Assembly: GCA_963817955.1 (NCBI GenBank)
Contig: CAWFQK010000001.1
Span: forward strand, 416,001 to 480,000
From: an uncultured Gemmatimonadaceae bacterium
Lineage (GTDB): Bacteria; Gemmatimonadota; Gemmatimonadetes; Gemmatimonadales; Gemmatimonadaceae
Direction: 5' to 3'
Length of the DNA stretch: 64,000 nt
Part shown: positions 4,558 to 63,417 of the stretch, piece after piece
How positions within the stretch are numbered: position 1 is the first letter of the stretch
How the letters are laid out: every line of letters begins with the position of its first letter
The notes under the pieces: generated by a model
The model's database searches: none
Told to the model about the DNA's origin: nothing
The model's input: only the letters and a program-made list of their open reading frames with translations
Made by a program: the position numbers and the translations under genes

Positions 4558-4650
4558 AAACTCACCACGCACAACTCACCACTGGACAACTCGAAACTCG
4601 CCGACCGGTGGGCCGACCAGTACGGAGCAGCCAGCGACATCCAGCCGGCT
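4558..4650 (+). repeat. R element copy 1 (right half only), preceded by GACACGG heptamers (4527-4557)
   Basis: AACTCACCACTGG..CTCGAAACTCGCCGACCGGTGGGCCGACC..TACGGAGCAGCCAGCGACATCCAGCCGG matches the other copies. Confidence 0.92.
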
Positions 4651-4652
4651 CA

Positions 4653-4718
4653 CAGAGATCCTTCGCTTGCTCAGGATGACAGGCATCCAGGATGACAGGC
4701 CTTCGCTCAGGATGACAG
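4653..4718. repeat. REP-like cluster (GATCCTTCGC..GCTCAGGATGAC family)
   Basis: Three CAGGATGACAGG units; same family at 19520, 27116, 31749 and 60644. Confidence 0.88.
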
Positions 4719-4739
4719 GCATCGCGGGTGATCGGTGAT

Positions 4740-4980
4740 CAGTTGTGAGTTGTGAGTTGTGAGTTGTCAGTATACGGGTCATGCGCACCAGGGTGCCTGG
4801 CTCGCCGGCCACTATCGCCGGTCGGCGAGGTTCGGGTGTCCAGTTGTGAGTCGTGAGTTGTGAGTTTTTAACAACGCGTAACGCATAACTCATCACTGGC
4901 AACTCGGAACTCGCCGACCGGTGGGCCGACCACTACGGAGCAGCCAGCGACATCCAGCCGGTCAGAACCCGGAGTCCAAC
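4740..4980 (+). repeat. R element copy 2 (full length)
   Basis: Heptamer leader, GTATACGGG..CCAGGGTGCCTGG..CACTATCG module, CCGGTCGGCGAG/CTCGCCGACCGG hairpin, right module ending CCGGAGTCCAA. Confidence 0.95.
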
Positions 4981-5035
4981 GCGCGCCTCACGATCGTTCC
5001 TCCCATCGGCGAGTTTCCCGTCTTGCGTTTGCGCA

Positions 5036-9706: not shown

Positions 9707-9749
9707 TGACCTTCGCGCATGGTGTAGCAGGGGTGGCGTCAACCGGGCT

Positions 9750-9940
9750 TGGACTCCGGGTTGTTGACCGGCTGGATGTCGCTGGCTGCTCCGTAGCGGT
9801 CGGCCCACCGGTCGGCGAGGTTCGAGTTGCCAGTGATGAGTGATGCGTTGCGCGTTGTTAAAAACTCACAACTCACAACGCACAACTGGACACCCGAACC
9901 TCGCCGACCGGCGATAGTGGTCAGCGTGCCAGGCGCCCGG
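9750..9940 (-). repeat. R element copy 3 (inverted, left end truncated), followed by TAACGCG heptamers (9959-9987)
   Basis: Reverse complement of copy 2, downstream of the thrA stop. Confidence 0.93.
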
Positions 9941-19525: not shown

Positions 19526-19606
19526 CCTAATAGTCCTGTCATCATGGAGCCCCTTCCCGTCATCCTGGAGTCCCTTCCTGTCATCCTGAGCGCAGCGAAG
19601 GATCCC
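19520..19606. repeat. REP-like cluster (GTCATCCTGAGCGCAGCGAAGGATC plus degenerate GTCATC units)
   Basis: GTCATC at 19521, 19538, 19559 and 19580; same family as 4653. Confidence 0.85.
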
Positions 19607-20525
19607 TCGGCGCATTCGACGACCCCACGACGTTCTTCCGCTCCTCTCGCAGCAGCACGGAACTGGTGTGCTCTTCCCGAACGTAGTAGCTCGGCCGATC
19701 ACGGAAGCGGCGCGTGAGACCGGCGACGTACTCGCCGATCAGCGCGATCATGACGGCGAGCACGAGGAACGCAATGGGTCCGCCAAAGAACGCCACATCC
19801 ACGATCGCGATCAGCACACCAATCCAGATCACCGTGCGCAACGGGTGCGTCGTGTGATCGATGATCATGGCGCGGAACAGATTGATTGCCTCGCGCTTTG
19901 GCCGCACCGCAGCATGTCCGCTGCGGTTGATCGGCGCGTACGGGAGCGGCTCCTTGCGAAAGCCGATGTACGACGTGAGTAATCTCAGATACTGATCCGG
20001 ACCATGGATCTGCGAGATCGCGTTCACCACTTGCCGGCTCATGCAGCGGAACTGCGTGGAGTTCTCTGGAATGCCGGCCTTGATGACGCGGTTCATGTAC
20101 CAGTAGAACATGCCGGCGCCGGCGCGGTACCAGAGCGGTTCGCTCTTGCGGTGCAGGCGCACGCCATAGACGACATCAGCTTCGCCGCGCGCCAGCTCGA
20201 AGAACCGCGGAATGAGCGACGGCGGATCCATGTTCGGCAGCATCACGATCACATAATCGCCAATGGCGACATCGAGTCCCGCGGAGATCGCCGTCTCTTC
20301 GCCAAAGTGCCGCGACAGCCTGAGGAACCGCAAGAAATCGTACTGCGCGAGCAACGCGCGCACGCGCGTCACCGTCTCCTCGTGCGCGCCGTCGTCGACG
20401 AGAATGATCTCGTAGTGCGACACGAGGCTGCTCAGCACAGCCACCGTCTCGTCGATGAACTGCTCGACGGCGGCCGCTGTATCGGCTTCGAGGGGGGCGA
20501 CGACGCTTATGAAGGACTCAAGCAC
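19581..20525 (-). CDS. Glycosyltransferase family 2 (GtrB/ArnC-like)
   Basis: ISVVAP, EIILVDDG, LSRHFG..AISAGL, C-terminal TM segments. Confidence 0.88.
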   Translation of the reverse strand: MLESFISVVAPLEADTAAAVEQFIDETVAVLSSLVSHYEIILVDDGAHEETVTRVRALLAQYDFLRFLRLSRHFGEETAISAGLDVAIGDYVIVMLPNMDPPSLIPRFFELARGEADVVYGVRLHRKSEPLWYRAGAGMFYWYMNRVIKAGIPENSTQFRCMSRQVVNAISQIHGPDQYLRLLTSYIGFRKEPLPYAPINRSGHAAVRPKREAINLFRAMIIDHTTHPLRTVIWIGVLIAIVDVAFFGGPIAFLVLAVMIALIGEYVAGLTRRFRDRPSYYVREEHTSSVLLREERKNVVGSSNAPRDPSLRSG

Positions 20526-31748: not shown

Positions 31749-31783
31749 CACAGAGATCCCTCGCTTTCGCTCAGGATGACAGA
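31749..31783. repeat. REP-like unit joined to R copy 4
   Basis: CACAGAGATCCCTCGCTTTCGCTCAGGATGACAG. Confidence 0.85.
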
Positions 31784-31789
31784 TATCGC

Positions 31790-32056
31790 GGGTGATCAGT
31801 GATGAGTTGTCAGTTGTCAGTTGTCAGTTGTCAGTTGTCAGTGTACAGGTCATGTGCACCAGGGCGCCTGGCTCGCAGGCCACTATCGCCGGTCGGCGAG
31901 TTTCGGGTGTCCAGTTGTGAGTTGTGAGTTGTGAGTTGCTAAAAACGCATAACGCATCACTCACAACTGGCAACTCGAAACTCGCCGACCGGTGGGCCGA
32001 CAGCTACGGAGCAGCCAGCGACATCCAGCCGGTCAACACCCAGAGTCCAATCCCCG
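31790..32056 (+). repeat. R element copy 4 (full), followed by TGTCCCG heptamers (32106-32152)
   Basis: All three modules present; lies between convergent genes. Confidence 0.95.
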
Positions 32057-32151
32057 CTGCGCCGACCGGTGCGAGAAGGCACGCATGCTCGAAAACCCGA
32101 AGTCGTTGTCCCGTGTCCCGTTGTCCCGTGTCCGTGCTCGTGTCCCGTGTC

Positions 32152-32947
32152 TCAGATCCACCCCTTCCACCGGTACTTCACCATCCCCAATCGCTCGTAC
32201 ACGTACTCCCGGAACGCCTCCAGCCGATCGTCCGGCCCACGCGGATTGATCGTGACGTAGTCCCGCTCCCGCGCCGGCTGGCACGCCACCTTGAAGCCAA
32301 CCCCCTCGAACACCGCACACGCGCGCCGAGTGTGCATGGGTGACGTCACCACGACAATCGATCGTGCCCCAGCGGGCAACAACAACCGAGCCGCCCCCAC
32401 CGCTTCGTCACGCGTCGAGTGGACGTTGGGCACGATGTCCCACTGCACCGAAAGATTTGTCATGGTGATGATGCGCTGCTGATCCACATCACTCGTCCCG
32501 CCGTGGTCACGCTGCACAAATATGCGACTGGTCACGAGACGCCGGGACGCGCCTTTCTGGAGTAGCTCGATTCCGGACAGCAGACGGTCCAACCCGTTGC
32601 CGGTGATTGTGGTGTCGTTCGTGATTCCGCTGGACAACACCATCACGGCGTCTACCGAGGCAGGCATTGGATCGCGACGAACCCAGCTCGCCGAGAGCCC
32701 ATGGGCCAATGGCGTCTCCGCGATCACCAGATAGGCCACGAGGAGCAGCCCATCGAGCGCCGGCCACCCACCCTGGTCTCTTACGGAGGCCCGCGGCAAA
32801 GCCGGCGACGGCGAACCAGAAGACGACCGTGTCACCGGACGGGAAGCCGAGTAGCCCGTCCAGCCCCAGCTCCAGGAGCAGGAAGCCCGCGAGCGCGCCA
32901 AGCAGCGCGCCGTACCATGCCGGCTTGTTGATTTTGGCTAAGTTCAT
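32152..32947 (-). CDS. YdcF/DUF218-family membrane protein (1-nt frameshift near 32760)
   Basis: N-terminal TM segments in one frame; DAVMVLSSG, STRDEA, VVTSPMHTRRA and EYVYE in the other. Confidence 0.82.
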
Positions 32948-35003: not shown

Positions 35004-35069
35004 CGCAGTCGCGGGGGGTGCGGGCTTTGCGGGCCTGCGGGCCACTACCGCCGGCCCGTGCGGCGTGGT

Positions 35070-35172
35070 GGGCTCCGGGCCCGCGACCGGCTGGATGTCG
35101 CTGGCTGCTCGGTACCGGTCGGCCCACCGGTCGGCGAGTTTCGAGTTTCCAGTTGTGAGTTGTGCGTTGTGA
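35070..35172 (-). repeat. R element copy 5 (inverted right half), joined to TCGTGTC heptamers (35179-35212)
   Basis: Reverse-complement match to the right module and right hairpin arm; downstream of tkt. Confidence 0.9.
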
Positions 35173-35349
35173 TGTTGTTCTCGTGTCTCGTGTCTCGTGT
35201 CTCGTGTCTCGTCGCCTGGCCGGCCTGCGAATTCAATCGCTGGTCGTGAGTTTTATCGCGCTACCCTTGACCCTGTAGCACAAAAATAGCATAGTGGTGT
35301 AGGACTTCTGTGCTACATCAGAGCCTATCGACCTCAACTGGGCGGCCCT

Positions 35350-39308: not shown

Positions 39309-39640
39309 GTTGTGAGTTGTCAGTTGTCAGTTGTGAGTATACGGGTCATGCGCACCAGGGCGCCTGGCTTCGCGGGCCACTATCGCCGGTCGGCGAGGTT
39401 CGGGTGTCCAGTTGTGAGTTGTGAGTTGTGAGTTTTTAACAACGCGCAACGCATAACTCACAACTGGCAACTCGAAACTCGCCGACCGGTGGGCCGACCG
39501 CTACGGAGCAGCCAGCGACATCCAGCCGGTCAACACCCGGAGCTCAATCCACGGCCTCACGATCGGCTGCGCCGGTGGGCCGACCGCTACGGAGCAGCCA
39601 GCGACATCCAGCCGGTCAACACCCGGAGTCCAATCCCCGC
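39309..39640 (+). repeat. R element copy 6 (full) with tandemly duplicated right module (39571-39640)
   Basis: CCGGTGGGCCGACC..CAACACCCGGAG occurs twice; preceded by poly-G and GGGACGGC octamers. Confidence 0.95.
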
Positions 39641-39772: not shown

Positions 39773-40993
39773 ATGAATCCGCTAAACAACCCGTTCTCAC
39801 CCGGAGCCGGCGCCCCTCCGCCCGAGCTCGCTGGTCGTGACGAAATCGTCAACGCCGCGACGATCGCTCTTCACCGTATCCGCGCAGGACGACCGGAAAA
39901 GAGTCAGCTGCTCCTCGGCCTTCGCGGCGTCGGAAAGACGGTCTTGTTGAACCGGATCGCCACCATCGCTGAAGAGACGGGCCATCTCGTCGTCCAATTC
40001 GAAGCACCGGAGGGGCAGAAGCTGGCCGAGTATCTCGCGCCGGCACTGAAAAGCGTCCTCCTCCGACTCAGCCGCGTCGAACGGGCGAAAGACTATGCCG
40101 CCCGCGCCATGGGCGCGCTGAGAGGGTTTGCAAGCGTGTTCAAGGTTTCCATCGGCGAGGTCGGGTTCGGCGTCGCCGAGCCGCAAACCGCCGACAGCGG
40201 CAACATCGAGTTTGATCTTCCTGAGTTACTGATCGCGACAGCGCAAGCGGCGAAAGCCGCGGACACAAGCGTCGCCGTCTTCGTCGATGAGGTCCAATAC
40301 CTGTCGGAGGAGGACCTCCGTGCACTGATCGTTGCGCTGCATCGCGTCGCGCAAAAGGGCTTACCTCTCGTCCTCTTTGGCGCCGGGCTTCCGCAGGTAG
40401 CCGCTCTCGCCGGAGAGGCGAAGTCTTACGCCGAACGGCTGTTCGACTATCCGGAAATCGGCCCTCTCGTTCCTTCGGCGGCAGAGCGTGCGGTACGGGA
40501 ACCCGTCCGCTCTGAAGGGGCGGACATTGACGCTGGAGCACTGCACGGGATCGTCGAGGTGACCCAAGGCTATCCGTACTTTCTGCAGGAATGGGGTAAG
40601 CACGCCTGGAACACTGCGCCACGATCGCCGATCACCGCGGCGGATGTCGAAATGGCCAGCAGGTCTGCGACCGACGCCTTGGACAAGAATTTCTTCCGAG
40701 TCCGGTTCGATAGGCTCACTCCGCGCGAACAGGATTATCTGCGGGCGATGGCGGACCTCGGCCCAGGCCCCCACCGGTCCGGGGCGATCGCTGAGAAGCT
40801 CGGGGCGGCGGTGGAGAACCTCGGTCCGCTGCGGAGCGGCCTCATAAAAAGGGGTATGATTTGGAGCCCGTCACACGGCAACACCGCCTTTACTGTACCC
40901 ATGTTCGACGCGTTCATGCGACGCGCGATCCCAGTTTGGCAGGCACCAGCCGCGCCCAAGCGCCGGGGGGGGACTGTGACCAGTGGTCAGTGA
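39773..40993 (+). CDS. AAA-family ATP-binding protein with wHTH (ATPase-2)
   Basis: NPFSPGAG..ELAGR, GLRGVGKT, VDEVQ, GAGLP, SYAERLF, GYPYFLQ, FTVPMF. Confidence 0.9.
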   Translation: MNPLNNPFSPGAGAPPPELAGRDEIVNAATIALHRIRAGRPEKSQLLLGLRGVGKTVLLNRIATIAEETGHLVVQFEAPEGQKLAEYLAPALKSVLLRLSRVERAKDYAARAMGALRGFASVFKVSIGEVGFGVAEPQTADSGNIEFDLPELLIATAQAAKAADTSVAVFVDEVQYLSEEDLRALIVALHRVAQKGLPLVLFGAGLPQVAALAGEAKSYAERLFDYPEIGPLVPSAAERAVREPVRSEGADIDAGALHGIVEVTQGYPYFLQEWGKHAWNTAPRSPITAADVEMASRSATDALDKNFFRVRFDRLTPREQDYLRAMADLGPGPHRSGAIAEKLGAAVENLGPLRSGLIKRGMIWSPSHGNTAFTVPMFDAFMRRAIPVWQAPAAPKRRGGTVTSGQ

Positions 40994-41250
40994 CCAGTGG
41001 TGAGTTGTGAGTTGTGAGTTGTGAGTTGTGAGTGTACGGGGCATGCGCACCAGGGCGCCTGGCATGCAGGCCACTATCGCCGGTCGGCGAGGTTCGGGTG
41101 TCCAGTTGTGAGTTGTGAGTTGTGAGTTTTTAACAACGCGCAACGCATAACTCACAACTGGCAACTCGAAACTCGCCGACCGGTGGGCCGACCGCTACGG
41201 AGCAGCCAGCGACATCCAGCCGGTCGATACCCGGAGCTCCAATCCCCGCC
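40976..41250 (+). repeat. R element copy 7 (full)
   Basis: Between convergent ATPase-2 and tsdA-like genes; its leader supplies the ATPase stop codon. Confidence 0.95.
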
Positions 41251-41259
41251 GGTCCGCGA

Positions 41260-44983: not shown

Positions 44984-45138
44984 GGTCGCATCCGATGCGT
45001 CGTCGCAATTGTTGTAGCGCTACAACTTGTATGGCTACAACATAGATGCTGCTCCGGCGCGAGGCAATATGATCCTTGGACGCTCCAGTTGGCCTCGGCC
45101 AGCGGGTGCGGATTGCGACGGTGGTGACGGTCGAGATG

Positions 45139-46308: not shown

Positions 46309-46641
46309 ATGAAAGCAGCCACGCACGACCGTCTTCCTCTCGCTGTCCGCCGTTCGCTCACGAAGTTGGGGCGTGACGTGGCGACCGCCCGGAAGAAACG
46401 CCGGTTGACGATGGCCATGATGGCCGAGCGGGTCGGGATCACCAAGGTCACGTACATCCGTGTCGAACGGGGAGACCCGACCGTGGGCATGGGGATCTAT
46501 GCCATGGTCCTTTTCGTCCTGGGACTGGGGGCACCGTTCGCCGATCTAGCCGATCCTGGTTCGGATGACCAGGCGCTCCTGCTTGAAGCCGAGCGCTTGC
46601 CGACCCGAGTGCGCACCAAGCAGGAGCCGACTGCACAATGA
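46309..46641 (+). CDS. XRE-family HTH antitoxin
   Basis: ARKKRRLT..MAERVGI..VERGDPTV..LFVLGL. Confidence 0.88.
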   Translation: MKAATHDRLPLAVRRSLTKLGRDVATARKKRRLTMAMMAERVGITKVTYIRVERGDPTVGMGIYAMVLFVLGLGAPFADLADPGSDDQALLLEAERLPTRVRTKQEPTAQ

Positions 46642-47942: not shown

Positions 47943-48023
47943 CCCGACAGCTTCTGCGAGGATCGAGGGGCAGGTGGGCGGCGATCCCTCAGTCGCGCAC
48001 CTGTGGTAACACGCCTGAGAACA

Positions 48024-49124
48024 TCACGCAGTGATTGCGTAGCTCGTACTGCGACCGCCTGCGGGACCTTTGCTGAGGATGTTCATTTCTACCAGGGCGA
48101 CGATATCTCGGATGGCCGTGTCCTGAGAGCACTTTCCGATTCTGGCCCACTTCGATGAGGTGAGCTTACCCTCAAAACCATCGAGCAGCAGGTTGAGCAC
48201 CTTGATCTGGCGCCCATTGAGTTGGGCGGCAGCGTGCCGCTGCCAGAAGTGAGCCTTGGAGAGCACGGCAGAAAGGGTGGCCTCGGCGCCTTCGATCGCG
48301 CGGTGCAAGCATCCGAGAAACCACTCCATCCAGCGCGTCACGTCGACGGTGTCTTTTTGAGTCCGCTCGAGGGCGGTGTAATAGGCGCGTCGTTCGGCCT
48401 GGATCTGGGCCGACATGCTGTAGTAGCGCTGGGGGCAGTTCTCCGAGCGCGCCAGGGCGAGGTCGGCGATCGCGCGGGCAATGCGACCGTTGCCATCGTC
48501 AAACGGGTGGATCGTGACGAACCACAGGTGTGCGAGTGCGGCCTTCAGGACGGGGTCGATCGCCGGCGACGCGTTGAACCAATCGAGGAAGCGCCCCATT
48601 TCGGCGTCGAGGCCCTCTGCTGGTGGAGCTGAATAGTGGACCCGCTCGTGACCGATGGGTCCGGAGACGACCTGCATTGGCCCTCCGGAGTCATCACGCC
48701 ACGCCCCAACACGGATTTTGCTCATGCCGGTGCGGCCGGTTGGGAAGAGTGCGGCGTGCCACCCAAAGAGCCTGTCCTCCGTCAGCGGATCCGCGAAGTT
48801 ACGAGTGGCGTCGAGCATCATTTCCACGACGCCTTCGACGTGACGATCAGCCGGGGTGAGCGCGCCAACATCAATCCCAAGGCGGCGGGCGAGGGATGAT
48901 CGCACCTGAGCGGCGTCCAGCTTCTCGCCCTCGATTTCGCTCGTTTTCAGAACATCCTGCGTAAGAGTTCGGAGGAAGGCCTCCTCACGCAACGCGAACC
49001 CGAGCGACTCCATGCGGCCGAGTAGCCGCCCCTGCTCGTGGCGCAAGTCGGCCAAGGGTTGAGCCAATCGCAGCTCGTCCCAGCGAAGCTTCGGCCACTC
49101 CGGCTGTTCCCATATGTAGCGCAT
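48024..49124 (-). CDS. Fic family protein (DUF4172 + Fic + wHTH)
   Basis: YIWEQPEWP, TSEIEGE, HPFDDGNGRIAR, GGRSTSY. Confidence 0.93.
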   Translation of the reverse strand: MRYIWEQPEWPKLRWDELRLAQPLADLRHEQGRLLGRMESLGFALREEAFLRTLTQDVLKTSEIEGEKLDAAQVRSSLARRLGIDVGALTPADRHVEGVVEMMLDATRNFADPLTEDRLFGWHAALFPTGRTGMSKIRVGAWRDDSGGPMQVVSGPIGHERVHYSAPPAEGLDAEMGRFLDWFNASPAIDPVLKAALAHLWFVTIHPFDDGNGRIARAIADLALARSENCPQRYYSMSAQIQAERRAYYTALERTQKDTVDVTRWMEWFLGCLHRAIEGAEATLSAVLSKAHFWQRHAAAQLNGRQIKVLNLLLDGFEGKLTSSKWARIGKCSQDTAIRDIVALVEMNILSKGPAGGRSTSYAITA

Positions 49125-49272
49125 AATCTCCGTACCTCCTGAGGAGATTATAGTCGCCAATCACCGCACGTCCAAGTCAATCGCCGCACTCTATGCGGAT
49201 ATTAGCGTGCTCAATCTCCGCATCACCCGCTGTCCCGATCGCGAGATTCCGCGCGCCGCTGCAGAGCCAGTC

Positions 49273-49668
49273 TCAACGGCGAGAAGCGTGCTGTCGCTGC
49301 TCAGCCAGTCGATCCAGGATGCTGCCTTGGTAACTGTTCCAGATGGCCTTGCGGTCGCCGATCAAGAGCACCCACACCTCATGAGCTGAGTTCTCGATAT
49401 GGTAGGCAACGCGCAGATGACCTATGCTGAGCTTGTATAGCCCATGCAGGGGCGCATGCAGCGGGGCGCCATACTCGAGCGGGGCACTGGGAAGCTTCTT
49501 GAGTATCGCCTGCTTGGCCCGCTCGAAGGCTGCGTGCCCGATCTCCGGCAAATCCTCGGAGAGGATGCGCGGTGAGAACCGGAGGCGCCAATACGAACCC
49601 TGGTCGCTCTGCCCGAGCGCTGCCTTGCCCGAAGAAGGCTCGGCGGGCGACCGACGTGGTTTCTTCAC
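49273..49668 (-). CDS. RelE/ParE-family toxin
   Basis: P..YGAPLHAPLHGLYKLSIGHLRVAY..VLLIGDR. Confidence 0.8.
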   Translation of the reverse strand: MKKPRRSPAEPSSGKAALGQSDQGSYWRLRFSPRILSEDLPEIGHAAFERAKQAILKKLPSAPLEYGAPLHAPLHGLYKLSIGHLRVAYHIENSAHEVWVLLIGDRKAIWNSYQGSILDRLAEQRQHASRR

Positions 49669-49693
49669 GACGATCCGCGACGCTGATCGGCAG

Positions 49694-49999
49694 CTACTTC
49701 TTCGCGCGCGCCGCCATGGCGGCGTCAGCCTTCGCAAAGAAGTCGTCCGCGTCGAGGAGGGCATCAGCGCCAGCGCGAACGGCGGCGATGCGATCAGTCG
49801 CGATTCCAGCGATTTGGAGATTTTCCAGGGCGTCCTCGAGAATACCCATCATCTCCATGCTGATGATGCCGCCAATGGGCTGACCATCCTTCGTGACGTA
49901 GACGCGATAATGCTCAGCCGCCTTGAAGGCGCCTCGAACATCCTTCTTGACCTCAGTGGTCGAGATCACCGCGGCCCGCGGGGCGTCGATTACCAGCAT
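49694..49999 (-). CDS. Phd/YefM-like antitoxin
   Basis: ISTTEVKK..VYVTKDGQP..LEDALEN. Confidence 0.78.
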   Translation of the reverse strand: MLVIDAPRAAVISTTEVKKDVRGAFKAAEHYRVYVTKDGQPIGGIISMEMMGILEDALENLQIAGIATDRIAAVRAGADALLDADDFFAKADAAMAARAKK

Positions 50000-50217
50000 T
50001 GGAACTCCAACCAAAGGTATGCGAAAAGGTACTCTCTAAAGTACCATATGGTGGCTCCGATGGCAAGTTGTCGCATGACGGGCTTGGCGTGATCAGTGGC
50101 GGACGACTGACAACCCACCACTGACCACTGACGACCCCAGCCCTTGACGCTTTCTTCCCTTTATGTAACCTTCTTCGACAACAGCCACTTCCTTCCCTTT
50201 ACGTAATCTCAAGCGAC

Positions 50218-52904: not shown

Positions 52905-53155
52905 GTGATCAGTTTTCAGTTTTCAGTGGTGAGTGGTGAGTATACGGGGCCTGCGCACCAGGGTGCCTGGCGCGCAGGCCACTATCGCCGGTCGGCGAGG
53001 TTCGGGTGTCCAGTTGTGCGTTGTGAGCTGTGAGTTTTAAAAACGCGCAACGCATAACACACTACTGGCAACTCGAACCTCGCCGACCGGCGGGCCAACC
53101 GCTACGGAGCAGCCAGCGACATCCAGCCGGAATAGAGCCCGGAGTCCAATCCACG
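52905..53155 (+). repeat. R element copy 8 (full)
   Basis: All three modules present. Confidence 0.94.
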
Positions 53156-54887: not shown

Positions 54888-55135
54888 GTTGTGATCAGTT
54901 TCCAGTGGTGAGTTGTGAGTATACGGGGCATGCGCACCAGGGTGCCTGGCGCGGAGACCACTATCGCCGGTCGGCGAGGTTGCGGGTGTCCAGTTGTGCG
55001 TTGTGAGTGGTGAGTTTTTGAAACGCGCAACGCATAACTCACCACTGGAAACTCGAACCTCGCCGACCGGTGGGCCGACCGGTACGGAGCAGCCAGCGAC
55101 ATCCAGCCAGTCAACACCCGGAGCCCAATCCCCGC
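54888..55135 (+). repeat. R element copy 9 (full), preceded by GAGCC pentamers (54841-54880)
   Basis: All three modules present. Confidence 0.94.
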
Positions 55136-55884: not shown

Positions 55885-56054
55885 TGACTGTGGTCAGTGA
55901 CCAGTTGTCAGTTGTCAGTTGTCAGTGGTCAGTGGTCAGTGGTCAGTATACGGGTCATGGGCACCAGGGCGCCTGGCTCGCAGGCCACTATCGCCGGTCG
56001 GCGAGGTTCGGGTGTCCAGTTGTGAGTTGTGAGCTGTGAGTTTCTAAAAACGCG
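55885..56054 (+). repeat. R element copy 10, left half (ends at hairpin apex)
   Basis: Leader, left module and left arm, ending GAGTTTCTAAAAACGCG. Confidence 0.94.
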
Positions 56055-56056
56055 GT

Positions 56057-56224
56057 ACAAACCGGTCTGATAGGTGAGCAACAAACCGGTCTGATAGGTG
56101 AGCAACAAACCGGTCTGATAGGTGAGCAACAAACCGGGCTGATAGGTGAGCAACAAACCGGGCTGATAGGTGAGCAACAAACCGGGCTGATAGGTGAGCA
56201 AACAGACCGGGCTGATAGGTGAGC
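56057..56224. repeat. 24-bp tandem array ACAAACCGG(T/G)CTGATAGGTGAGCA x7
   Basis: Three T-type units, three G-type units, one degenerate unit; no spacers. Confidence 0.96.
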
Positions 56225-56299
56225 TTGGGTGAGACAGCCTGGACCGGCCGGAAACGGTACGATGCTGCGACCTAGACTGCGGCCGCGCAGCTTTTGCAC

Positions 56300-56677
56300 A
56301 TGCAGGATTTTCGCCGGCTCAAAGTATGGGACAAGGCTGTCGCTCTGGCGCTCGGAGTCCGAAGGGCTACGACGCGGTTTCCAAAGCAGGGCTATTCGGA
56401 ACTGAAAGCGCAGCTGGTCTCGGCTGCCGAATCGGTGGGCAACAACATCGTCGAGGGTTGCGGCGCGAGCACGCAGAAAGAATTCGCGCGCTTTCTGGAA
56501 ATGTCCGTGAAGTCCGCGATGGAGCTCGAGGGCGAACTGGAGCTGGCGTACCGGTACGACGTGCTGCAGGAACGCGACCGGCGCGCCCTTGGCGCAATGA
56601 CAGTCGAGACGCGCCGAATGCTCTGCGGTCTGCGGAACAAGGTGCTGAGCACCACCGGTGAGACCCCACCCCGTTAA
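56300..56677 (+). CDS. Four-helix-bundle protein (23S rRNA IVS protein / Avd-like family)
   Basis: MQDFRRLKVWDKA..FP..L..QL..AA.SV..NIVEG.G..T.KEF.RFL..S..S..E signature. Confidence 0.92.
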   Translation: MQDFRRLKVWDKAVALALGVRRATTRFPKQGYSELKAQLVSAAESVGNNIVEGCGASTQKEFARFLEMSVKSAMELEGELELAYRYDVLQERDRRALGAMTVETRRMLCGLRNKVLSTTGETPPR

Positions 56678-56790
56678 CACTCACAACGCACAACTCACAA
56701 CTGGAAACTCGAACCTCGCCGACCGGTGGGCCGCCCGCTACGGAGCAGCCAGCGACATCCAGCCGGCCAACACCCGGAGCCCAATCCACG
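56678..56790 (+). repeat. R element copy 10, right half
   Basis: Starts immediately after the four-helix-bundle stop codon: ACTCACAACGCACAACTCACAACTGG..CTCGCCGACCGG plus right module. Confidence 0.95.
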
Positions 56791-56820
56791 CCTTCGCCGG
56801 TCCGCGATCACTCAGCCGGA

Positions 56821-57843
56821 CTACGGCAATTTCGTGCCTACCGTGCGGTACGCCGCATCGGGCGGAGCATCCCCTTTCGGCCAATCGAGTTCCTTCCCGA
56901 CAAAATCCGGACGTGGCTTCGACACGATATATGCCGCCACGTCGAACGCTTCGCCGGGCGCGAGTGTGCCCGGTCGGTTGAATGGCATGCTGGCCTGGAT
57001 GAACGCCGCCGCGGTGCGCAGTCGAGCCATGCCTGCGCCGACATTGAACGAGGAAGCCCCCCATAGCGGCGTTGCGATCGTCGTCCCCTCCCCATTCGCG
57101 CCGTGGCAGGCTGCACAATTGAGCGCAAACACTGCTCGGCCCCGCGCGGTATCAGGCGGGCTTGCCGGGGCATTCACCTTCAGCGCCTGGGTGCCGTCGT
57201 TGCGGACTTGCGCCGAGGGGCGTGAGAGGTACGCCATGTAGGCGACCAGGTCGCGCATCTCGCGGCTGTTCTCCGGGAGCGCGCGACCGTTCATGCTGCG
57301 ACGAAGGCAGCCGTTCACGCGATCGGCCATCGTCAAAATCTTGCCCTCGCGGGCGCGATACTGCGGAAAGCGCGCATAGACTCCCAGCCAGGGGATCGCG
57401 CCATTTCGCATGCCGCCGTCGAGATGACAACTCGAGCAGCGGAGCACGTTGCCCGTGTAGCCGGGCAAACTGTCTCGCGTTGCGTCGGCAATGGCGCGAC
57501 CCCGGAGGACGGCCGCGCGAACCTGGGGGGTCAACTCGACGTTATTTGGGATCGAGAAGGCCGTGGGAGACTCCACAATCGAGGGCTCCGTCGCGACCAA
57601 CGACTCGTGCTGTACGAAGCGCGTGACGGCGAGCACACTGGCGAGCGCGGCGCCCGCGCCGACGGTTGCCAATATGCGCCGCTTCGTTCGGCGGCCGATA
57701 CGCTGGCTGATGGCCTGCACGGGCCGGGCGATCATGGGCCCGATCAGGAAGAGAAGCACGAACGTGAGCCACGCCAGACCCGCGATGCATAGCACGAGGC
57801 CGAGCGCAATCGCCAGAATGCCAAGCGGTCCGTGAGTTTCCAT
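56821..57843 (-). CDS. tsdA: TsdA-like diheme cytochrome c, second copy
   Basis: Same motifs as 41260-42297, with many scattered substitutions. Confidence 0.8.
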   Translation of the reverse strand: METHGPLGILAIALGLVLCIAGLAWLTFVLLFLIGPMIARPVQAISQRIGRRTKRRILATVGAGAALASVLAVTRFVQHESLVATEPSIVESPTAFSIPNNVELTPQVRAAVLRGRAIADATRDSLPGYTGNVLRCSSCHLDGGMRNGAIPWLGVYARFPQYRAREGKILTMADRVNGCLRRSMNGRALPENSREMRDLVAYMAYLSRPSAQVRNDGTQALKVNAPASPPDTARGRAVFALNCAACHGANGEGTTIATPLWGASSFNVGAGMARLRTAAAFIQASMPFNRPGTLAPGEAFDVAAYIVSKPRPDFVGKELDWPKGDAPPDAAYRTVGTKLP

Positions 57844-57878
57844 ACGGCTCTAGTGTTCCAGAACTGGCTTCGAGGCAA

Positions 57879-58688
57879 TCACCTGCGAGGATCGGTGCTT
57901 TGCCGTTCGGTGTGTTCGCGGCGGATGACGTGGCGGAGGCTTTCGAGCTCCTGGATGCGGGGACGCCAGTATGCCTCGTCCGCGGCGCGCTCTCGCGTCT
58001 CCTCGTCCGCGAGGGCGCTTCCGATCTCCTGTTCCGAACCTCCCTGCGCGGCGATTGCGGTCGCCTGGCGGGCGGCCGACAGTTCGGGAAGGAGCGCGGC
58101 GATCTCGGAGGGTGCGGCCTGAGCGCGCGCGACGCATTCGGCAAGAAGCGCGGGCGTGCGTAGCTCGCGCAGCCAGAAGCGAAACCGCTCAGGCGTCGGC
58201 TCGAGCTCCGGATCCAAGTAGTGGCGTTCGACGAGCCGTCGGACCATGGGCCAATCCTTGTCGCGGCGTGTCTTCTTGCAACGGACCAAATCCTCGAGGC
58301 CGAGCACTTCGAGCTCGCCAAGGTCGCCGAGGGCGAACGTGCTCCGGCGGGCCCAGCATTCCGCAAACGAGGGGACGTTCCGCATCGACGCCATCACGTC
58401 GATCCGCATGCCCGCCGCCGCTGATCCTGGGCCGCATTCAAAGTGGACCGCGTGTCCGCGTGCCAGGTACTCCGGCTCGAAGGGGGGAACGGCGGTGACG
58501 CGCGCCGCGAGGGCCGAAAGTGCTGTTTGCAGTCGCCGCAGGTTATCAGGCTCCGCGAGGATGGCGATGTCGGTGTCGCGGCTAAACTCCGCGGCGCCGT
58601 AGAGGATGCACGCCTGCCCGCCCATGAGCAGGTAGCGAACGCCATGTTCGCGCATGGAAGAAAGGACTCTGCGAGTCGGGCTCGACAT
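57879..58688 (-). CDS. Nucleotidyltransferase-fold protein
   Basis: YLLMGGQAC..SRDTDI, RIDVM, LVRCKKTRRDKDW. Confidence 0.8.
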   Translation of the reverse strand: MSSPTRRVLSSMREHGVRYLLMGGQACILYGAAEFSRDTDIAILAEPDNLRRLQTALSALAARVTAVPPFEPEYLARGHAVHFECGPGSAAAGMRIDVMASMRNVPSFAECWARRSTFALGDLGELEVLGLEDLVRCKKTRRDKDWPMVRRLVERHYLDPELEPTPERFRFWLRELRTPALLAECVARAQAAPSEIAALLPELSAARQATAIAAQGGSEQEIGSALADEETRERAADEAYWRPRIQELESLRHVIRREHTERQSTDPRR

Positions 58689-58914
58689 CGAGACTGCCTC
58701 CGAGATCGGTGAACGTCTGCCATAATTGCTCCGCCTCGCGCCACCGATCCTGCGGACTCAGTCGATACCAGTCTGCCCATTCCGGGCCGACGAGCGCGAT
58801 CAGCGCGTCCGGTTCAAAGTAGGCGGACGGCGCCACGCTGCGAGCCGTGCCGACAGCACGGTTCCCCAGCGCACTCGACCTGACTGTTCGAGCCATCCCG
58901 TTATCGTCGTGCAT
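58582..58914 (-). CDS. Small protein overlapping the nucleotidyltransferase start (putative TA partner)
   Basis: EWADWYRLSPQDRW..LGGSLD.EPD.QSPF. Confidence 0.6.
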   Translation of the reverse strand: MHDDNGMARTVRSSALGNRAVGTARSVAPSAYFEPDALIALVGPEWADWYRLSPQDRWREAEQLWQTFTDLGGSLDVEPDSQSPFFHARTWRSLPAHGRAGVHPLRRRGV

Positions 58915-59005
58915 TCTATCACTATATGGGTTTCAGCAGGTTCGCTCAAGGCAGATAGCTGACGGCTCGCGGCTGCGGCCGCGCGACTGACGACTGACAA
59001 CCGTT

Positions 59006-60124
59006 TTACTGATGACTGAAGGCGGAGGAACTGATTGCGTAGCTCGTACTGCGACCGCCTGCGGGACCTTTGCTGAGGATGTTCAATTCTACCAGGGCGA
59101 CGATATCCCGGATGGCCGTGTCCTGAGAGCACTTTCCGATCTTGGCCCACTTCGATGAGGTGAGCTTACCCTCAAAGCCATCGAGCAGCAGGTTGAGCAC
59201 CTTGATCTGGCGCCCGTTGAGTTGGGCGGCAGCGTGCCGCTGCCAGAAGTGAGCCTTGGAGAGCACGGCAGAAAGGGTGGCCTCGGCGCCGTCGATCGCG
59301 CGGTGCAAGCATCCGAGAAACCACTCCATCCAGCGCGTCACATCGACGGTGTCTTTTTGAGTCCGCTCGAGGGCGGTGTAATAGGCGCGTCGTTCGGCCT
59401 GGATCTGGGCCGACATGCTGTAGTAGCGCTGGGGGCAGTTCTCCGAGCGCGCCAGGGCGAGGTCGGCGATCGCGCGCGCAATGCGACCGTTGCCATCGTC
59501 AAACGGGTGGATCGTGACGAACCACAGGTGTGCGAGTGCGGCTTTCAGGACGGGGTCGATCGCCGGCGACGCGTTGAACCAATCGAGGAAGCGCCCCATT
59601 TCGGCGTCGAGGCCCTCTGCTGGTGGAGCTGAATAGTGGACCCGCTCGTGACCGATGGGTCCGGAGACGACCTGCATTGGCCCTCCGGAGTCATCACGCC
59701 ACGCCCCAACACGGATTTTGCTCATGCCGGTGCGGCCGGTTGGGAAGAGTGCGGCGTGCCACCCAAAGAGCCTGTCCTCCGTCAGCGGATCCGCGAAGTT
59801 ACGAGTGGCGTCGAGCATCATTTCCACGACGCCTTCGACGTGACGATCAGCCGGAGTGAGCGCGCCAACATCAATCCCAAGGCGGCGGGCGAGGGATGAT
59901 CGCACCTGAACGGCGTCCAGCTTCTCGCCCTCGATTTCGCTCGTTTTCAGAACATCCTGCGTAAGAGTTCGGAGGAAGGCCTCCTCACGCAGCGCGAACC
60001 CGAGCGACTCCATGCGGCCGAGTAGCCGTCCCTGCTCGTGGTGCAAGTCGGCCAAGGGTTGAGCCAATCGCAGCTCGTCCCAGCGAAGCTTCGGCCACTC
60101 CGGCTGTTCCCATATGTAGCGCAT
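59006..60124 (-). CDS. Fic family protein, second near-identical copy
   Basis: 59032-60212 matches 48032-49212 including the promoter, with few substitutions. Confidence 0.93.
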   Translation of the reverse strand: MRYIWEQPEWPKLRWDELRLAQPLADLHHEQGRLLGRMESLGFALREEAFLRTLTQDVLKTSEIEGEKLDAVQVRSSLARRLGIDVGALTPADRHVEGVVEMMLDATRNFADPLTEDRLFGWHAALFPTGRTGMSKIRVGAWRDDSGGPMQVVSGPIGHERVHYSAPPAEGLDAEMGRFLDWFNASPAIDPVLKAALAHLWFVTIHPFDDGNGRIARAIADLALARSENCPQRYYSMSAQIQAERRAYYTALERTQKDTVDVTRWMEWFLGCLHRAIDGAEATLSAVLSKAHFWQRHAAAQLNGRQIKVLNLLLDGFEGKLTSSKWAKIGKCSQDTAIRDIVALVELNILSKGPAGGRSTSYAISSSAFSHQ

Positions 60125-60232
60125 AATCTCCGTACCTCCTGAGGAGATTATAGTCGCCAATCACCGCACGTCCAAGTCAATCGCCGCATTCTATGCGGAT
60201 ATTAGCGTGCTCTCGGCTATTTTGCCGTTCCT

Positions 60233-60415
60233 GTGGTCGCAAAGCTGACCGCTTCCGTACGTGCGCTCGAGGCCCTCTGGAAGACCTCGTACACCACCGC
60301 GAATGAGACTGTCAAGCGGCTAGTCGAGGCAGGGTATCTGACGACCCGTCCTCCCACGGGTCGCCCAGCGATGCGGTACGGCGCGACCGGCGCAACGCGT
60401 CTGGCGTTGTGGTGA
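60233..60415 (+). pseudogene. C-terminal wHTH fragment
   Basis: SYTTANETVKRLVEAGYL..TGRP; begins just after the Fic duplication breakpoint. Confidence 0.45.
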
Positions 60416-60643
60416 GGTGTCAGTGGTGAGGTGTGAGTGGTGAGTTGTGAGTATACAGGCCCTGTGCACCAGGGTGCCTGGCTCGCAGGCTACTATCGCC
60501 GGTCGGCGAGGTTCGGGTGTCCAGTTGTGCGTTGTGAGTGGTGCGTTGTAAAAACGCGCAACGCATAACTCATCACTGGAAACTCGAACCTCGCCGACCG
60601 GTGGGCCGACCGGTACGGAGCAGCCAGCGACATCCAGCCGGTC
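60410..60643 (+). repeat. R element copy 11 (full), joined to a REP unit at 60644-60678
   Basis: Ends CCAGCCGGTC-CACAGAGATTCTTCGCTTCGCTCAGAATGACAGG. Confidence 0.95.
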
Positions 60644-60664
60644 CACAGAGATTCTTCGCTTCGC

Positions 60665-62119
60665 TCAGAATGACAGGCCTTTGCAGTGAGTCAGGTCTGC
60701 GCTGGTGAACCCAAGGACGTCACCCGAGGCGATTGCGGCTGCCACGCCATGCGACCATGCATCGTTGCCGGAGAAGAGGGCGAAGTGCACGCGGTGCACT
60801 GGTTGACCGGCCGGCAGATCGGTGAGGAGCAGTTTTGCGCGCGCGCGAAGCGTGTCGAGGTCGGGATCATCGACCCTGCCCCATTTGCATTCGCCGACGA
60901 GGATGTCTCCGTCCAGTCCGACGGCGACGATGTCGATTTCGTTCCGTGAGTCCGCGTCCCACCAGGCCCCGACCCTGCTGGGCTTGAATGGGAGTTTGGT
61001 GGTGCGGCCTACCCAAGCGCGGCAGATGTCCTCGAAGGGGGCACCCATGTAGTCGTCGAGTCGCGGTGCAATACGCTGCTGCCACAGTTGCTCTGGCGCA
61101 ACGAGGCTGATCTCGCCGGTGGCGATGAGGGGGGCAACGAACCGGTGCCAGAAGGCAACGTACGGATCGTTAATTCGATACAGCGTGCGTTTGGAGTGCT
61201 GCGGGCTCGTCTCTGTGATGGGGACCATGCGGGCCACGACCTGCATCTCTTCGAGCCAACGCATTGGACGAGAGAGGGAACCGCTGCCCTTCCCCAGCCT
61301 GCTCGTGATCTTGCTCCACGTGCGCTCTCCGTTCGCGATGGCCTGGATGATCGAATAATGGATGTCCGCGTCCCCACCCCCGCGAAAGGCGTCAAGCATG
61401 TGCTGCGCCTCGTCGAACAGGCGTCCGGCCGGGGTGAGCATCTGTCGCATCACGTTCGCTGCGAGCCCCCGCTCGGGGTCGAGGAGGGCGAGGTGCCCCG
61501 GCAAGCCGCCGAAGATGCTGAAGGTGATGAGGCGTTCCCGAGCGGTGTACCCCGGGACGAAGGCGCCGACGTATTCGTGGGTGAATGGCGGGAAGATGAG
61601 CCGTCCGGTTCGGCGACCGTACAGCGGCTGATCCGCCTGCTCCAAACGCTGCATTGCCGAGATGTGCGACCCGTTGAGGACTAGCTTGAGGCGGGTCTCG
61701 GGCCAGTGGTGGTCCCACTCCGATTGAATGATCGAGGGTAGTGATGGCGCGGCCGCTGCCAGGTATGGGAACTCGTCGAGGATGAGGAGGAGCGGGGCAC
61801 CGGCAGCTCGGTCTGTGAGGTATTGGAAGAGGCTCTCCCAATCCGGAAGCGCCACCCCACGAAGTAGCGCCGCATCATCAAAATGGCTCCCAATAATCCG
61901 GCTGAGGGCCGCGAGCTGCTCAGTCTCCGTGCGGTTGGTGGCCTGGTAATAGATTCCGCCCACGGACTTCGCGAATCGAGTCAGGACCCAGCTCTTGCCC
62001 GCGCGCCGACGTCCAACGCCGAAGATGAGATCGGGGGCAGCTCGGTTCCAGATCTCGTTGAGTTCCTGCCACTGGGCATCTCGGTCGATGATGTCAGCAG
62101 GCTTTATTGGTCGAGGCAT
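60665..62119 (-). CDS. ATPase-3, second copy
   Basis: Near-identical to 43547-44983; stop codon supplied by the REP unit. Confidence 0.9.
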   Translation of the reverse strand: MPRPIKPADIIDRDAQWQELNEIWNRAAPDLIFGVGRRRAGKSWVLTRFAKSVGGIYYQATNRTETEQLAALSRIIGSHFDDAALLRGVALPDWESLFQYLTDRAAGAPLLLILDEFPYLAAAAPSLPSIIQSEWDHHWPETRLKLVLNGSHISAMQRLEQADQPLYGRRTGRLIFPPFTHEYVGAFVPGYTARERLITFSIFGGLPGHLALLDPERGLAANVMRQMLTPAGRLFDEAQHMLDAFRGGGDADIHYSIIQAIANGERTWSKITSRLGKGSGSLSRPMRWLEEMQVVARMVPITETSPQHSKRTLYRINDPYVAFWHRFVAPLIATGEISLVAPEQLWQQRIAPRLDDYMGAPFEDICRAWVGRTTKLPFKPSRVGAWWDADSRNEIDIVAVGLDGDILVGECKWGRVDDPDLDTLRARAKLLLTDLPAGQPVHRVHFALFSGNDAWSHGVAAAIASGDVLGFTSADLTHCKGLSF

Positions 62120-62202
62120 GGTTGCATCCGATGCGTCATCGCTATTGTTGCAGCACTACAACTTGTATGCTTACAACATAGATGCTGCTCCGGCGCGAGA
62201 CA

Positions 62203-63216
62203 ATCGCTGAAGAGAAGGGCCATCTCGTCGTCCAACTCGAAGCACCAGAGGGGCAGAAGCTGGCGGAGTATCTCGCGCCGGCACTGAAAAGCGTCCTCCT
62301 CCGACTCAGCCGCGTCGAACAGGCGAAAGACTACGCCACCCGCGCCATGGGCGCGCTGAGAGGCTTTGCAAGCGTGTTCAAGGTTTCAATCGGCGAGGTC
62401 GGGTTCGGCGTCGCCGAGCCGCCAACCGCCGACAGCGGCAACATCGAGTTTGATCTTCCCGAGTTACTCATCGCGACAGCGCAAGCGGCGAAAGCCGCGG
62501 ACACAAGCGTCGCCGTCTTCGTCGATGAGGTCCAATACCTGTCGGAGGAAGACCTCCGTGCACTGATCGTTGCGCTGCATCGCGTCGCGCAAAAGGGCTT
62601 ACCTCTCGTCCTCTTTGGCGCCGGGCTTCCGCAGGTAGCCGCTCTTGCCGGAGAGGCGAAGTCTTACGCCGAACGGCTGTTCGACTATCCGGAAGTCGGC
62701 CCTCTCGATCCTTCGGCGGCAGAGCGTGCGGTACGGGAACCCGTCCGCTCTGAAGGGGCGGACATTGACGCTGGAGCACTGCACGAGATCGTCGAGGTAA
62801 CCCAAGGCTATCCGTACTTCCTGCAGGAATGGGGTAAGCATGCCTGGAACACTGCGCCACGATCTCCAATCACCGCGGAGGATGTCGAAATGGCCAGCAG
62901 GTCTGCGACCGACGCATTGGACAAGAACTTCTTCCGAGTCCGGTTCGACAGGCTCACTCCGCGCGAACAGGATTATCTGCGGGCGATGGCGGACCTCGGC
63001 CCAGGACCGCACCGGTCCGGGGCGATCGCTGAGAAGCTCGGGGCGGCCGTGGAGAACCTCGGTCCGCTGCGGAGCGGCCTCATAAAAAAGGGTATGATTT
63101 GGAGCCCGTCGCACGGCAATACGGCCTTTACTGTACCCATGTTCGACGCGTTCATGCGACGCGCGATCCCGGTTTGGCAGGCACCAGCCGCACCCAAGCG
63201 CCGGGGGGGACTGTGA
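62203..63216 (+). pseudogene. 5'-truncated second copy of ATPase-2 (no Walker A)
   Basis: Match to 39965 begins at ATCGCTGAAGAG, fused to the ATPase-3 promoter region. Confidence 0.88.
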
Positions 63217-63417
63217 CCAGTGGTGCGTTGTCAGTTGTCAGTTGTCAGTTGTGAGTTGTGAGTTGTGAGTGTACGGGGCATGCGCACCAGGGCGCCTGGC
63301 ATGCAGGCCACTATCGCCGGTCGGCGAGGTTCGGGTGTCCAGTTGTGAGTTGTGAGTTATGAGTTTCTAAAAACGCATAACTCACAAATGGCAACTCGAA
63401 ACTCGCCGACCGGTGGG
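63212..63417 (+). repeat. R element copy 12 (right module missing)
   Basis: Leader, left module and full hairpin; stops after CCGGTGGG. Confidence 0.93.

Follow-up and report, generated by a model that had tools for sequence, protein, structure and literature searches.

A hairpin-forming repeat family at gene 3' ends of a soil Gemmatimonadaceae bacterium, likely derived from the arms of a four-helix-bundle gene cassette

The genome of one soil bacterium (Gemmatimonadaceae) carries 119 loci of a hairpin-forming repeat family, and the reading that we prefer, with a probability of about 0.55, is that these hairpins were inserted at gene 3' ends and are likely copies of cassette arms that lack the cassette's gene and have later recombined with one another. 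The family came to attention in a window of 64,000 nucleotides, the whole stretch of DNA that was analysed, from which an earlier note had listed copies of a repeat. All of the listed loci exist, including the doubled R module of the sixth copy and the missing R of the twelfth (none follows position 63418), and the seven loci at 39-64 kb do lie on the same strand. Counted across the genome, the loci are mostly at gene 3' ends, as had been proposed (87/119 within 60 bp), and the described clustering in the TA island is borne out, since its 8 loci make it the genome's densest 25-kb stretch.

The L-hairpin-R unit originally described is one arrangement of a wider genome family. The recurring part is arm A, a single heptamer arm of ~50 bp with about 161 copies in the genome, which is flanked on one side by R or by inverted L. 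Arms are joined either head-out, as g-A-R-S-h-L-A'-g' wedged between stop codons, or head-in, as L-A'-A-R (the junction form); in other settings they surround a four-helix-bundle gene or are solitary. Single arms account for 46 of the 119 loci, outward-facing inverted arms for 13 and L-hairpin-R for 22. R itself is non-periodic, 60 bp long and present at 116 places, with a core that is the best-conserved part of the repeat. In 19/111 copies R is followed by a tail, to which L is homologous in inverted orientation. What had been called a central hairpin is a pair of inverted copies of arm A, the loci at 4558 and 35070 are real but are half elements (GGGACAC array, arm A and R), and 4558 and 4740, listed separately, together form one composite (Table 1). 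The statement that the repeat lacks terminal inverted repeats is true of the L-hairpin-R arrangement alone, because arms elsewhere face outward and bound the element: head-out copies (g-A...A'-g') have long terminal inverted repeats that the junction form does not. Eight copies in the window are near-complete, with mutual identities of 87.6-96.8%, and one 23-mer of the repeat is found exactly 11 times in the window, and 58 times when the whole genome is counted. Replication-strand bias was not visible by eye in 100-kb bins.

Table 1. Repeat copies and enclosed features in the window (positions counted from its first base).
Feature and parts	Position	Strand	Context or basis
Composite copy: GGGACAC array, arm A 4554-4608, R 4609-4650, spacer S, heptamer array h 4741-4768, L 4769-4817, A' 4818-4867, A 4874-4921, R 4922-4979	4527..4979	+	Empty site in relatives; begins 5 bp past stop of gene 3964-4521, faces glgE stop
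Junction form: partial L, A', A, R	9749..9938	-	Behind thrA
S, h, L, A', A, R (31993-32053), tail, inverted GGGACAC array	31765..32153	+	Between convergent genes
Single arm: GGGACAC-type array, A, R	35069..35210	-	Behind tkt
h, L, A', A, R, R (tandem second R 39576-39636)	39315..39636	+	
h, L, A', A, R	40989..41244	+	Overlaps stop of ATPase gene 39773-40993; two segmental duplications end here
h, L, A', A, R (second R allele)	52925..53152	+	Flanked by divergent genes, alone among window copies
h, L, A', A, R	54904..55131	+	
Left arm of gene-carrying cassette: h, L, A'	55903..56045	+	
IS481-like left end, inner repeat expanded	56054..56240	+	Seven inner-repeat units vs two in intact element; no transposase after it
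Intact four-helix-bundle gene, 125 aa (PF05635, TIGR02436)	56300..56677	+	In hairpin loop; stop abuts arm A
Right arm of gene-carrying cassette: A, R	56678..56787	+	
h, L, A', A, R, S	60436..60684	+	Overlaps 3' end of ATPase gene 60665-62119; duplicate of that gene at 43547 lacks the repeat
h, L, A', A without R	63233..63422	+	Duplicate of 40989 copy, cut at A|R border

The link to a cassette comes from the genes that some arms enclose. Five four-helix-bundle (23S-IVP family) genes are present in the genome, and two of them lie between A arms, both intact and encoding proteins that are 95% identical; the other three have different arms or none. One of the two occupies the split copy at 55885/56678, which is real, although the earlier description of it missed the enclosed IS481-like left end and the gene. 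The second gene-carrying copy (C4:1553037-1553810) has the layout R'-A'-gene-A-R, which indicates that R belongs to the arm. Its arms fall at the base (branch lengths 0 and 0.025) of an 18-copy R subfamily with support of 84/98 from few columns, and a zero branch length is also found at five other tips of the R tree. In the genus more broadly, inverted flanks scoring 40 or more accompany 29/30 of the four-helix-bundle loci fetched, compared with 6/677 small genes of this genome. Judging from these sequence comparisons, the repeat likely consists of arms of a four-helix-bundle hairpin cassette that have been copied without its gene. Alternatively, the arms could overlie an older cassette through conversion. 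Both gene-carrying copies have themselves been rearranged, since an IS481-like left-end fragment lies upstream of the gene in each, and an excised or circular form of the element was not seen.

Placement and comparison with relatives argue for insertion. The loci lie between convergent genes in 64/119 cases, compared with 573/4027 gene pairs, and 39/54 of the GGGACAC arrays that lead into A begin no more than 30 bp from a sense stop. Among six informative relatives, four have a 17-bp overlap between glgE and its convergent neighbour and one has a gap of 25 bp, whereas 514 bp separate the two genes here; the overlapping stop codons in those four relatives show that the element was inserted, with a precision limited by the closest relatives being only ~75% identical in protein. 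The element's ends are fuzzy, with arrays of variable length abutting stop codons, and fixed ends with a constant target duplication were not seen when the copies of this one genome were inspected by eye. The family was not found in 60 related genomes examined, of which 3 gave heptamer-arm matches only. A 32-base pattern of the repeat found 0 stretches in metagenome contigs, and the hits to a 19-base pattern (4 in those contigs, 1 in GTDB contigs) stood in other contexts and were all due to chance. By these searches, the repeat sequence itself is restricted to one lineage.

Once in place, the copies appear to have exchanged parts. The modules assort independently: distances in L and R are uncorrelated across 23 junction copies (r = -0.13), and 60/120 site pairs within R fail the four-gamete test, although recurrent mutation can also produce such failures and few sites enter the module tests. 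The R tree is star-like, as in a burst. In the island, segmental duplications (39962-41192 = 62200-63422; 41130-42310 = 56674-57856) have produced two of the copies, and R lies at the ends of two duplications, with most duplication ends elsewhere. One local expansion was considered for the island copies and rejected, as they form no clade in the R tree. BIME-type mosaics offer a comparison for the mosaics of this family. Taken together, the empty site in relatives, the star-like tree, the independent modules and R at duplication ends support the earlier suggestion of mobile, recombining hairpin DNA.

Under our preferred reading, the family would have expanded in a burst, as a single strand folded back on itself. 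Its most likely helper in trans would be the four-helix-bundle protein that the two gene-carrying copies encode, much as RAYT serves REPINs. This putative helper role is the weakest step and we consider it doubtful. RecA-type exchange and template switching among the many arms could then give rise to the mosaics and island rearrangements, and the long 3' hairpins that the arms would form on transcripts would be a by-product. A bolder version, which strikes us as unlikely, has the IVP protein mobilising transposase-free fold-back elements that insert directly behind stops; R would mark a recent, 100-copy non-autonomous burst, the head-in and head-out forms would be junctions of a circular or rolling-hairpin intermediate, and the extruded hairpin would mimic attC and so capture an attC-hunting IS481-like element.

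Like REPINs, as described in the available part of PMC3116915, the repeat is an extragenic, non-coding inverted doublet predicted to fold into a hairpin as single-stranded DNA or mRNA, and it likewise has clusters, mosaics, single arms as decay products, and roles as an IS target and recombination spot. Unlike the ~20-bp REPs of that account, the arms here are graded heptamer arrays of 50-110 bp with unique modules; moreover, no RAYT was found, the enclosed gene, where there is one, encodes a four-helix-bundle protein, and the heads are tied to stops. The cassette resembles ORF-bearing 23S rRNA intervening sequences in having an S23p/IVP-family ORF in the loop of a terminal-inverted-repeat stem, as far as the accessible text of PMC4990558 describes them, but it lies between protein-coding genes, with no rRNA in the window, and its gene-less arms have been amplified about 100-fold. 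Heptamer arrays of Xanthomonas and Nostoc are likewise intergenic, often in inverted pairs and near one ORF, and in the portion of PMC4692102 consulted they are simple and G-rich, whereas here R, L, S, permutations, a cargo gene and an IS guest are added. Among titles and, in part, abstract openings, no relevant publication on a link between four-helix-bundle proteins and heptamers was found. Heptamer arrays and the IVP protein family have both long been unexplained, and this genome provides a young, high-copy case in which R and L act as unique sequence tags that connect about 100 gene-less hairpins with two intact four-helix-bundle genes. Thus, the question of what moves them becomes testable with one gene and one marked hairpin.

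The alternative that fares best, although we think it rather unlikely, is that the repeats are 3'-end mRNA hairpins tolerated or selected by the host, perhaps as stabilisers, Rho-dependent or bidirectional stop signals, or RNase III sites, and that they arose by heptamer slippage and gene conversion with no dedicated mobiliser and with the gene as a passenger. The position of the loci at stops and between convergent genes is consistent with this notion, as is the composition of the 39 genes before array heads, whose last 60 coding bases are C-poor (0.267 vs 0.308; 0/2000 random draws as low). The stop of a thioredoxin-reductase-like gene is also suggestive, with an unrelated repeat array or hairpin in 11/27 relatives, which as kin are not independent, against 33/600 gene ends in this genome; R, A and L are absent from those arrays and hairpins. 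However, five of the six relatives have no insert at glgE, terminators are not in excess at 52.7-57 kb (3 found vs 2.5 expected), and slippage does not account for a non-periodic 60-bp R at 116 places. Furthermore, two arms of the same copy are no better matched than arms taken from different copies (13 full copies, p = 0.86), which argues that pairing has not been maintained.

It is less probable still that the repeat is a MITE or REPIN moved through its inverted arms by an IS481-like, an IS110 or a lost RAYT/IS200-type enzyme. The long terminal inverted repeats of the head-out form, the burst-like tree and the intact IS481-like transposase inside four copies speak for such a mechanism. Yet the IS481-like element, whose transposase scores 204.9 bits against the NF033577 cut-off of 224 (best of five families), is a guest in the repeat: it has its own ends (GGTAC on the left), and in relatives the same ends adjoin attC cores, at 9-16 nt behind attC-like cores, or other arrays. 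The h|L junction, which forms the 3' foot of the predicted A:h hairpin, is where all four full copies lie, each with an intact transposase. Relatives of the element in viral contigs and plasmids added nothing to this picture. Of the transposase families that were checked, the IS481-like and IS110 elements differ from the repeat in ends or places, and no IS110 copy, reverse-transcriptase match or IS91-like relic adjoins R. Searches of the genome found no Y1/RAYT gene (PF01797, NF047646) and no small stand-alone GIY-YIG gene; the assembly, at 94% completeness, may lack a mobiliser. The lack of a constant target duplication also weighs against this explanation.

The idea of a structured ncRNA, or a cis-acting 3' RNA motif, on the minus strand had been prompted by the folding of R and seems to us very improbable. 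The R core is well conserved, a 10-bp stem gains three G-U pairs when read on the minus strand, and the minus-strand fold is indeed better in 92/94 copies. That fold is no better than shuffles (mean z -0.8, 25 copies), however, and the long central hairpin favours the plus strand in 21/21 (z -12.8). Covariation, assessed among paralogues of one genome only at about 12% divergence, is also lacking: variant cells in the R stem comprise 0 compensatory, 49 stem-breaking and 14 stem-keeping, and the GUUGACCG/CGGUCGGC helix, intact in only 27/94 copies, shows 146 breaking cells and 4 compensatory ones. No Rfam family matched the repeat at the gathering threshold, a tRNA/tmRNA search returned none, and R was not found in the 60 relatives or in either collection scan. 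Among sequencing runs listed as carrying the sequence none was of RNA, and four low-share DNA runs from one study yielded only short pieces at low depth, which carry no weight here. Nor is the minus strand the only one read through: the upstream gene reads the plus strand at 93/119 loci and the downstream gene the minus at 85/119. We conclude that the repeat is not a new RNA family. A protein-gene relic was also rejected for R, whose common variants, inspected by eye, are spread over all three codon positions in the one plausible frame.

Least probable of all is an attC-like site used by the resident integron integrase (C4:1373624, above cut-off), with the TA island as a cassette array, although duplicated blocks of the island occur in a shuffled order, two of their ends being at R, and the IS residing in R adjoins attC in relatives. 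The recombination site proposed earlier is unsupported in this form: a home-made scan for the R'' (RYYYAAC) and R' (GTTRRRY) boxes that close an attC hairpin gave 46 pattern hits, of which 0 lie in an R module, the true attC sites by the integrase are unrelated to R, no R occurs in the intI array (C4:1.374-1.398 Mb), GTT and AAC stand in the opposite order to attC in the junction form, island genes face both directions, and most duplication ends lie away from R.

The behaviour of the guest element has parallels in other hairpin repeats. An IS481 element in the REPs of Pseudomonas fluorescens SBW25 likewise has every copy at one hairpin-repeat position (PMC11708052, in the part available), and the same is true of the IS1111-attC group (PMC11187229, likewise in part). 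In the available parts of these two papers the attC-adjacent habit is given for IS1111 members only, whereas the element described here is IS481-like (below the NF033577 cut-off) and has relatives behind attC-like cores. One IS lineage is found on attC sites in some genomes and, in another, on the hairpins described here; this pattern suggests that the shape of the DNA is what is recognised.

The repeat loci listed in the earlier note were all recovered by self-BLAST and motif counts, with 87.6-96.8% identity among eight near-complete copies. Profile searches of the 4.53-Mb, 94% complete genome gave 119 loci, with 161 matches to arm A, 116 to the right module R and 42 to the left module L. Arm A is a graded heptamer array of ~50 bp with a 12-bp GC-rich piece at its end, and what had been described as a central hairpin is A fused to its inverted form, A'. 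Sorted by module grammar, 46 of the 119 loci are single arms (g, A, R, where g is a GGGACAC array), 22 have the junction form already described, h-L-A'-A-R (h being a heptamer array), 13 hold A-R-S-h-L-A' with the arms outward, and 38 take other forms. Arrays of g close both ends of 6 of the 13 outward-arm loci, and in 4 of these 6 the two ends are no more than 24 bp from a pair of convergent stops. The family thus has long terminal inverted repeats, contrary to the earlier report of none, and the unit described there is a permutation. L is not an independent module: in 19 of 111 copies the stretch that follows R matches the reverse complement of L better than 99% of random DNA does. The doubling of R in copy 6 (second R at 39576) and its absence from copy 12 (no R after 63418) were as noted before, and both fit the short direct repeats that flank R. 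Five larger gene-less elements enclose a common interior of 700-800 bp that is 80-90% identical.

Locations of elements of the repeat family, its guest and module S (C1, C2, C4, C5 and C9 are contigs of the source genome; the window is C1:416001-480000)
Feature	Location	Remark
Full IS481-like copy	C4:242685-244074	
Full IS481-like copy	C4:905439-906829	
Full IS481-like copy	C5:39583-40972	
Full IS481-like copy	C9:169789-171178	
Second arm-enclosed four-helix-bundle gene	C4:1553037-1553810	R'-A'-gene-A-R; protein 95% identical to window copy
Larger gene-less element	C1:329565-330626	inverted g-A-R arms
Larger gene-less element	C2:333521-334708	inverted g-A-R arms
Larger gene-less element	C2:811146-812623	inverted g-A-R arms
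Larger gene-less element	C4:1576773-1577767	inverted g-A-R arms
Larger gene-less element	C4:198086-198878	inverted g-A-R arms
Module S	window 19535-19607	
Module S	window 27134-27200	
Module S	window 4650-4729	
Module S	window 31744-31793	
Module S	window 60645-60684	

Module S, the spacer palindrome, is a separate short family with ~123 genome matches that also occurs alone and in tandem. Palindromic repeats of the S type are linked to small GIY-YIG genes; none was found in this genome, at 94% completeness. A distinct hairpin family, with AGAACTGC-type arms around ~230 bp, occupies window 16-377.

Gene positions come from a hexamer-based caller (4036 genes) that makes some errors, such as a spurious call at 55929-56201. 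As the earlier note held, the repeats sit mostly at gene 3' ends, one of which lies within 60 bp at 87 of 119 loci. Convergent genes flank 64 of 119 loci against 573 of 4027 gene pairs, and divergent genes 5 of 119 against 571 of 4027. Among 11 relatives fetched, six keep the convergent neighbour of glgE; the two genes overlap by 17 bp in four of these and are 25 bp apart in one and 397 bp in another, where the gap is an unrelated repeat. The corresponding gap here, 514 bp, is occupied by the repeat element. R was not found in the 60 relatives searched, wider scans of sequence collections returned chance matches only, and a tree of 82 A+R copies (107 columns, weak support) is mostly star-shaped. 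Taken together, these sequence comparisons argue that the family is a young expansion within one lineage.

Such empty sites count against the main rival reading, in which a passive or host-selected 3' hairpin has spread by conversion alone, and so does a terminator search at window 52.7-57 kb, which showed no excess. The rival does draw support from the re-use of one stop codon by unrelated repeats: behind a thioredoxin-reductase-like gene (C2:970619, and L126-L153 in related genomes), where the repeat or hairpin after the stop differs among relatives, unrelated arrays or hairpins follow in 11 of 27 relatives, several of them close kin, against 33 of 600 gene ends in the source genome. It is also favored by the C-poor, G-rich sense strand of the last 60 coding bases ahead of GGGACAC array heads genome-wide. 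A small gene between the two neighbours at C2:970619 is present in relatives and lost here.

The claim that modules vary independently holds in 23 junction copies, where distance matrices calculated separately for L, A', loop, A and R do not correlate (L against R, r = -0.13) apart from a weak L-A' correlation (r = 0.30, p = 0.05). Within R, all four gametes occur at 60 of 120 pairs of sites, every arrangement contains both main R alleles, and two arms from one element are no more alike than arms taken from different ones. Arrangement labels cluster on the tree, yet 9 changes are required. Recombination between dispersed arms is the simplest cause of these mosaics, to which recurrent mutation could have contributed.

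Between the halves of the split copy at 55903-56787 lie a fragment of an IS left end and an intact four-helix-bundle gene (125 aa) of the 23S-IVP family (PF05635, TIGR02436), whose stop abuts arm A. A second such gene is also enclosed by arms (see table), and the remaining three in the genome have other arms or none. Inverted flanks scoring at least 40, each with its own sequence, occur at 29 of 30 loci fetched among 53 matches listed from the genus (two being from this genome), compared with 6 of 677 small genes of the source genome. In the A+R tree the C4 cassette's arms branch at the base of a subfamily of 18 R copies, a hint, not proof, that this cassette may be its master copy.

Insertion at gene 3' ends and module exchange bear out the suggestion of a mobile or recombining element, and with the hairpin anatomy, the arms common to the four-helix-bundle cassette and an IS landing site they are established features of the family. 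We propose that the repeat spread as a fold-back strand, after which homologous exchange and template switching would have shuffled its modules; more tentatively, at a probability of about 0.3, the four-helix-bundle protein may have helped this spread in trans. That these are transposase-free elements driven by the IVP protein seems to us still more doubtful. The repeat works like a REPIN/BIME mosaic (PMC3116915), but in a 94% complete genome where no Y1/RAYT gene was found; the gene-carrying form shares its design with ORF-bearing 23S intervening sequences (PMC4990558), but lies outside rRNA; and the arrays are similar to heptamer repeats described in Xanthomonas and Nostoc (PMC4692102). A literature search mostly outside subscription journals yielded no paper linking four-helix-bundle genes to heptamer arms, and titles and abstract openings revealed no such repeats in Gemmatimonadota.

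As to other candidate mobilisers, R does not adjoin IS110 copies, the genome's single reverse-transcriptase match or an IS91-like relic. A true integron, with an integrase above the TIGR02249 cut-off, lies at C4:1373441-1398544; behind the integrase comes a run of small genes and TA cassettes bearing attC sites, interrupted by IS elements. We reject R as an attC, since the sites of this integron bear no relation to R and 0 of 46 attC-pattern matches fall in an R module.

The IS481-like element (1390 bp; transposase 204.9 bits against a family cut-off of 224) has four full copies, 97.5-98.4% identical and with intact ORFs. All four occupy the h|L junction, at the 3' base of a hairpin predicted between A and h, in differing L alleles; a strict pattern finds 35 such junctions without an insertion, and A' loops contain three further IS left ends. 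Because its relatives share the GGTAC left end, the element appears to be a guest and not the parent of the repeat. One insertion followed by co-amplification is a possible source of the four copies, against which stand flanks only 89-96% alike, below the identity of the copies themselves. We examined 31 loci of relatives (L042-L089), leaving aside those of two unpublished genomes; 6 had no usable end, and 11 of the other 25 carry an attC-core-like heptamer, GTTRNRY, 9-16 nt upstream, compared with 2% of random 22-mers. Heptamer arrays instead host L062, the closest relative, and L080. Two papers describe attC targeting by IS1111 members (PMC11187229) and IS481 insertion at one REP position in P. 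fluorescens SBW25 (PMC11708052), so that there, as here, the IS keeps to one position of its host repeat.

We also reject the repeat as an RNA family. Rfam gave no match. R does fold better on the minus strand, by ~8 kcal/mol in 92 of 94 copies, but comparison of 25 copies with shuffled sequences gave a mean z of -0.8, and all 21 long hairpins examined fold better on the plus strand. Neighbours read through the minus strand at 85 of 119 loci, as claimed, but also through the plus strand at 93. Both candidate R helices carry mostly breaking variants: the 10-bp stem has 49 pair-breaking and 14 pair-keeping variant cells and 0 compensatory changes, and the proposed GUUGACCG/CGGUCGGC helix, which uses the most variable part of R and has all 8 pairs intact in 27 of 94 copies, has 146 breaking, 49 one-sided keeping and 4 compensatory cells. 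These counts, from paralogues of ~12% divergence that limit power, point against conserved structure.

No 25-kb stretch of the genome is denser in the repeat than the TA island, which counts 8 loci, and the seven loci noted at window 39-64 kb do share one strand. Two of these copies derive from segmental duplications, and across the genome 93 of 119 loci are oriented like their upstream gene, so the shared strand needs no special cause; the A+R tree recovered no clade of island copies. Four blocks, each 1.2-1.5 kb long, occur twice within 39962-50000 and 56674-63422, in shuffled order and at 88-99% identity; they carry an ATPase (5'-truncated in its second copy), a tsdA-like cytochrome, a DUF234 ATPase and Fic. 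A nucleotidyltransferase-type TA locus is represented by two fragments that match each other, at 43320-43481 and 58570-58900, the former an internal deletion of the latter.
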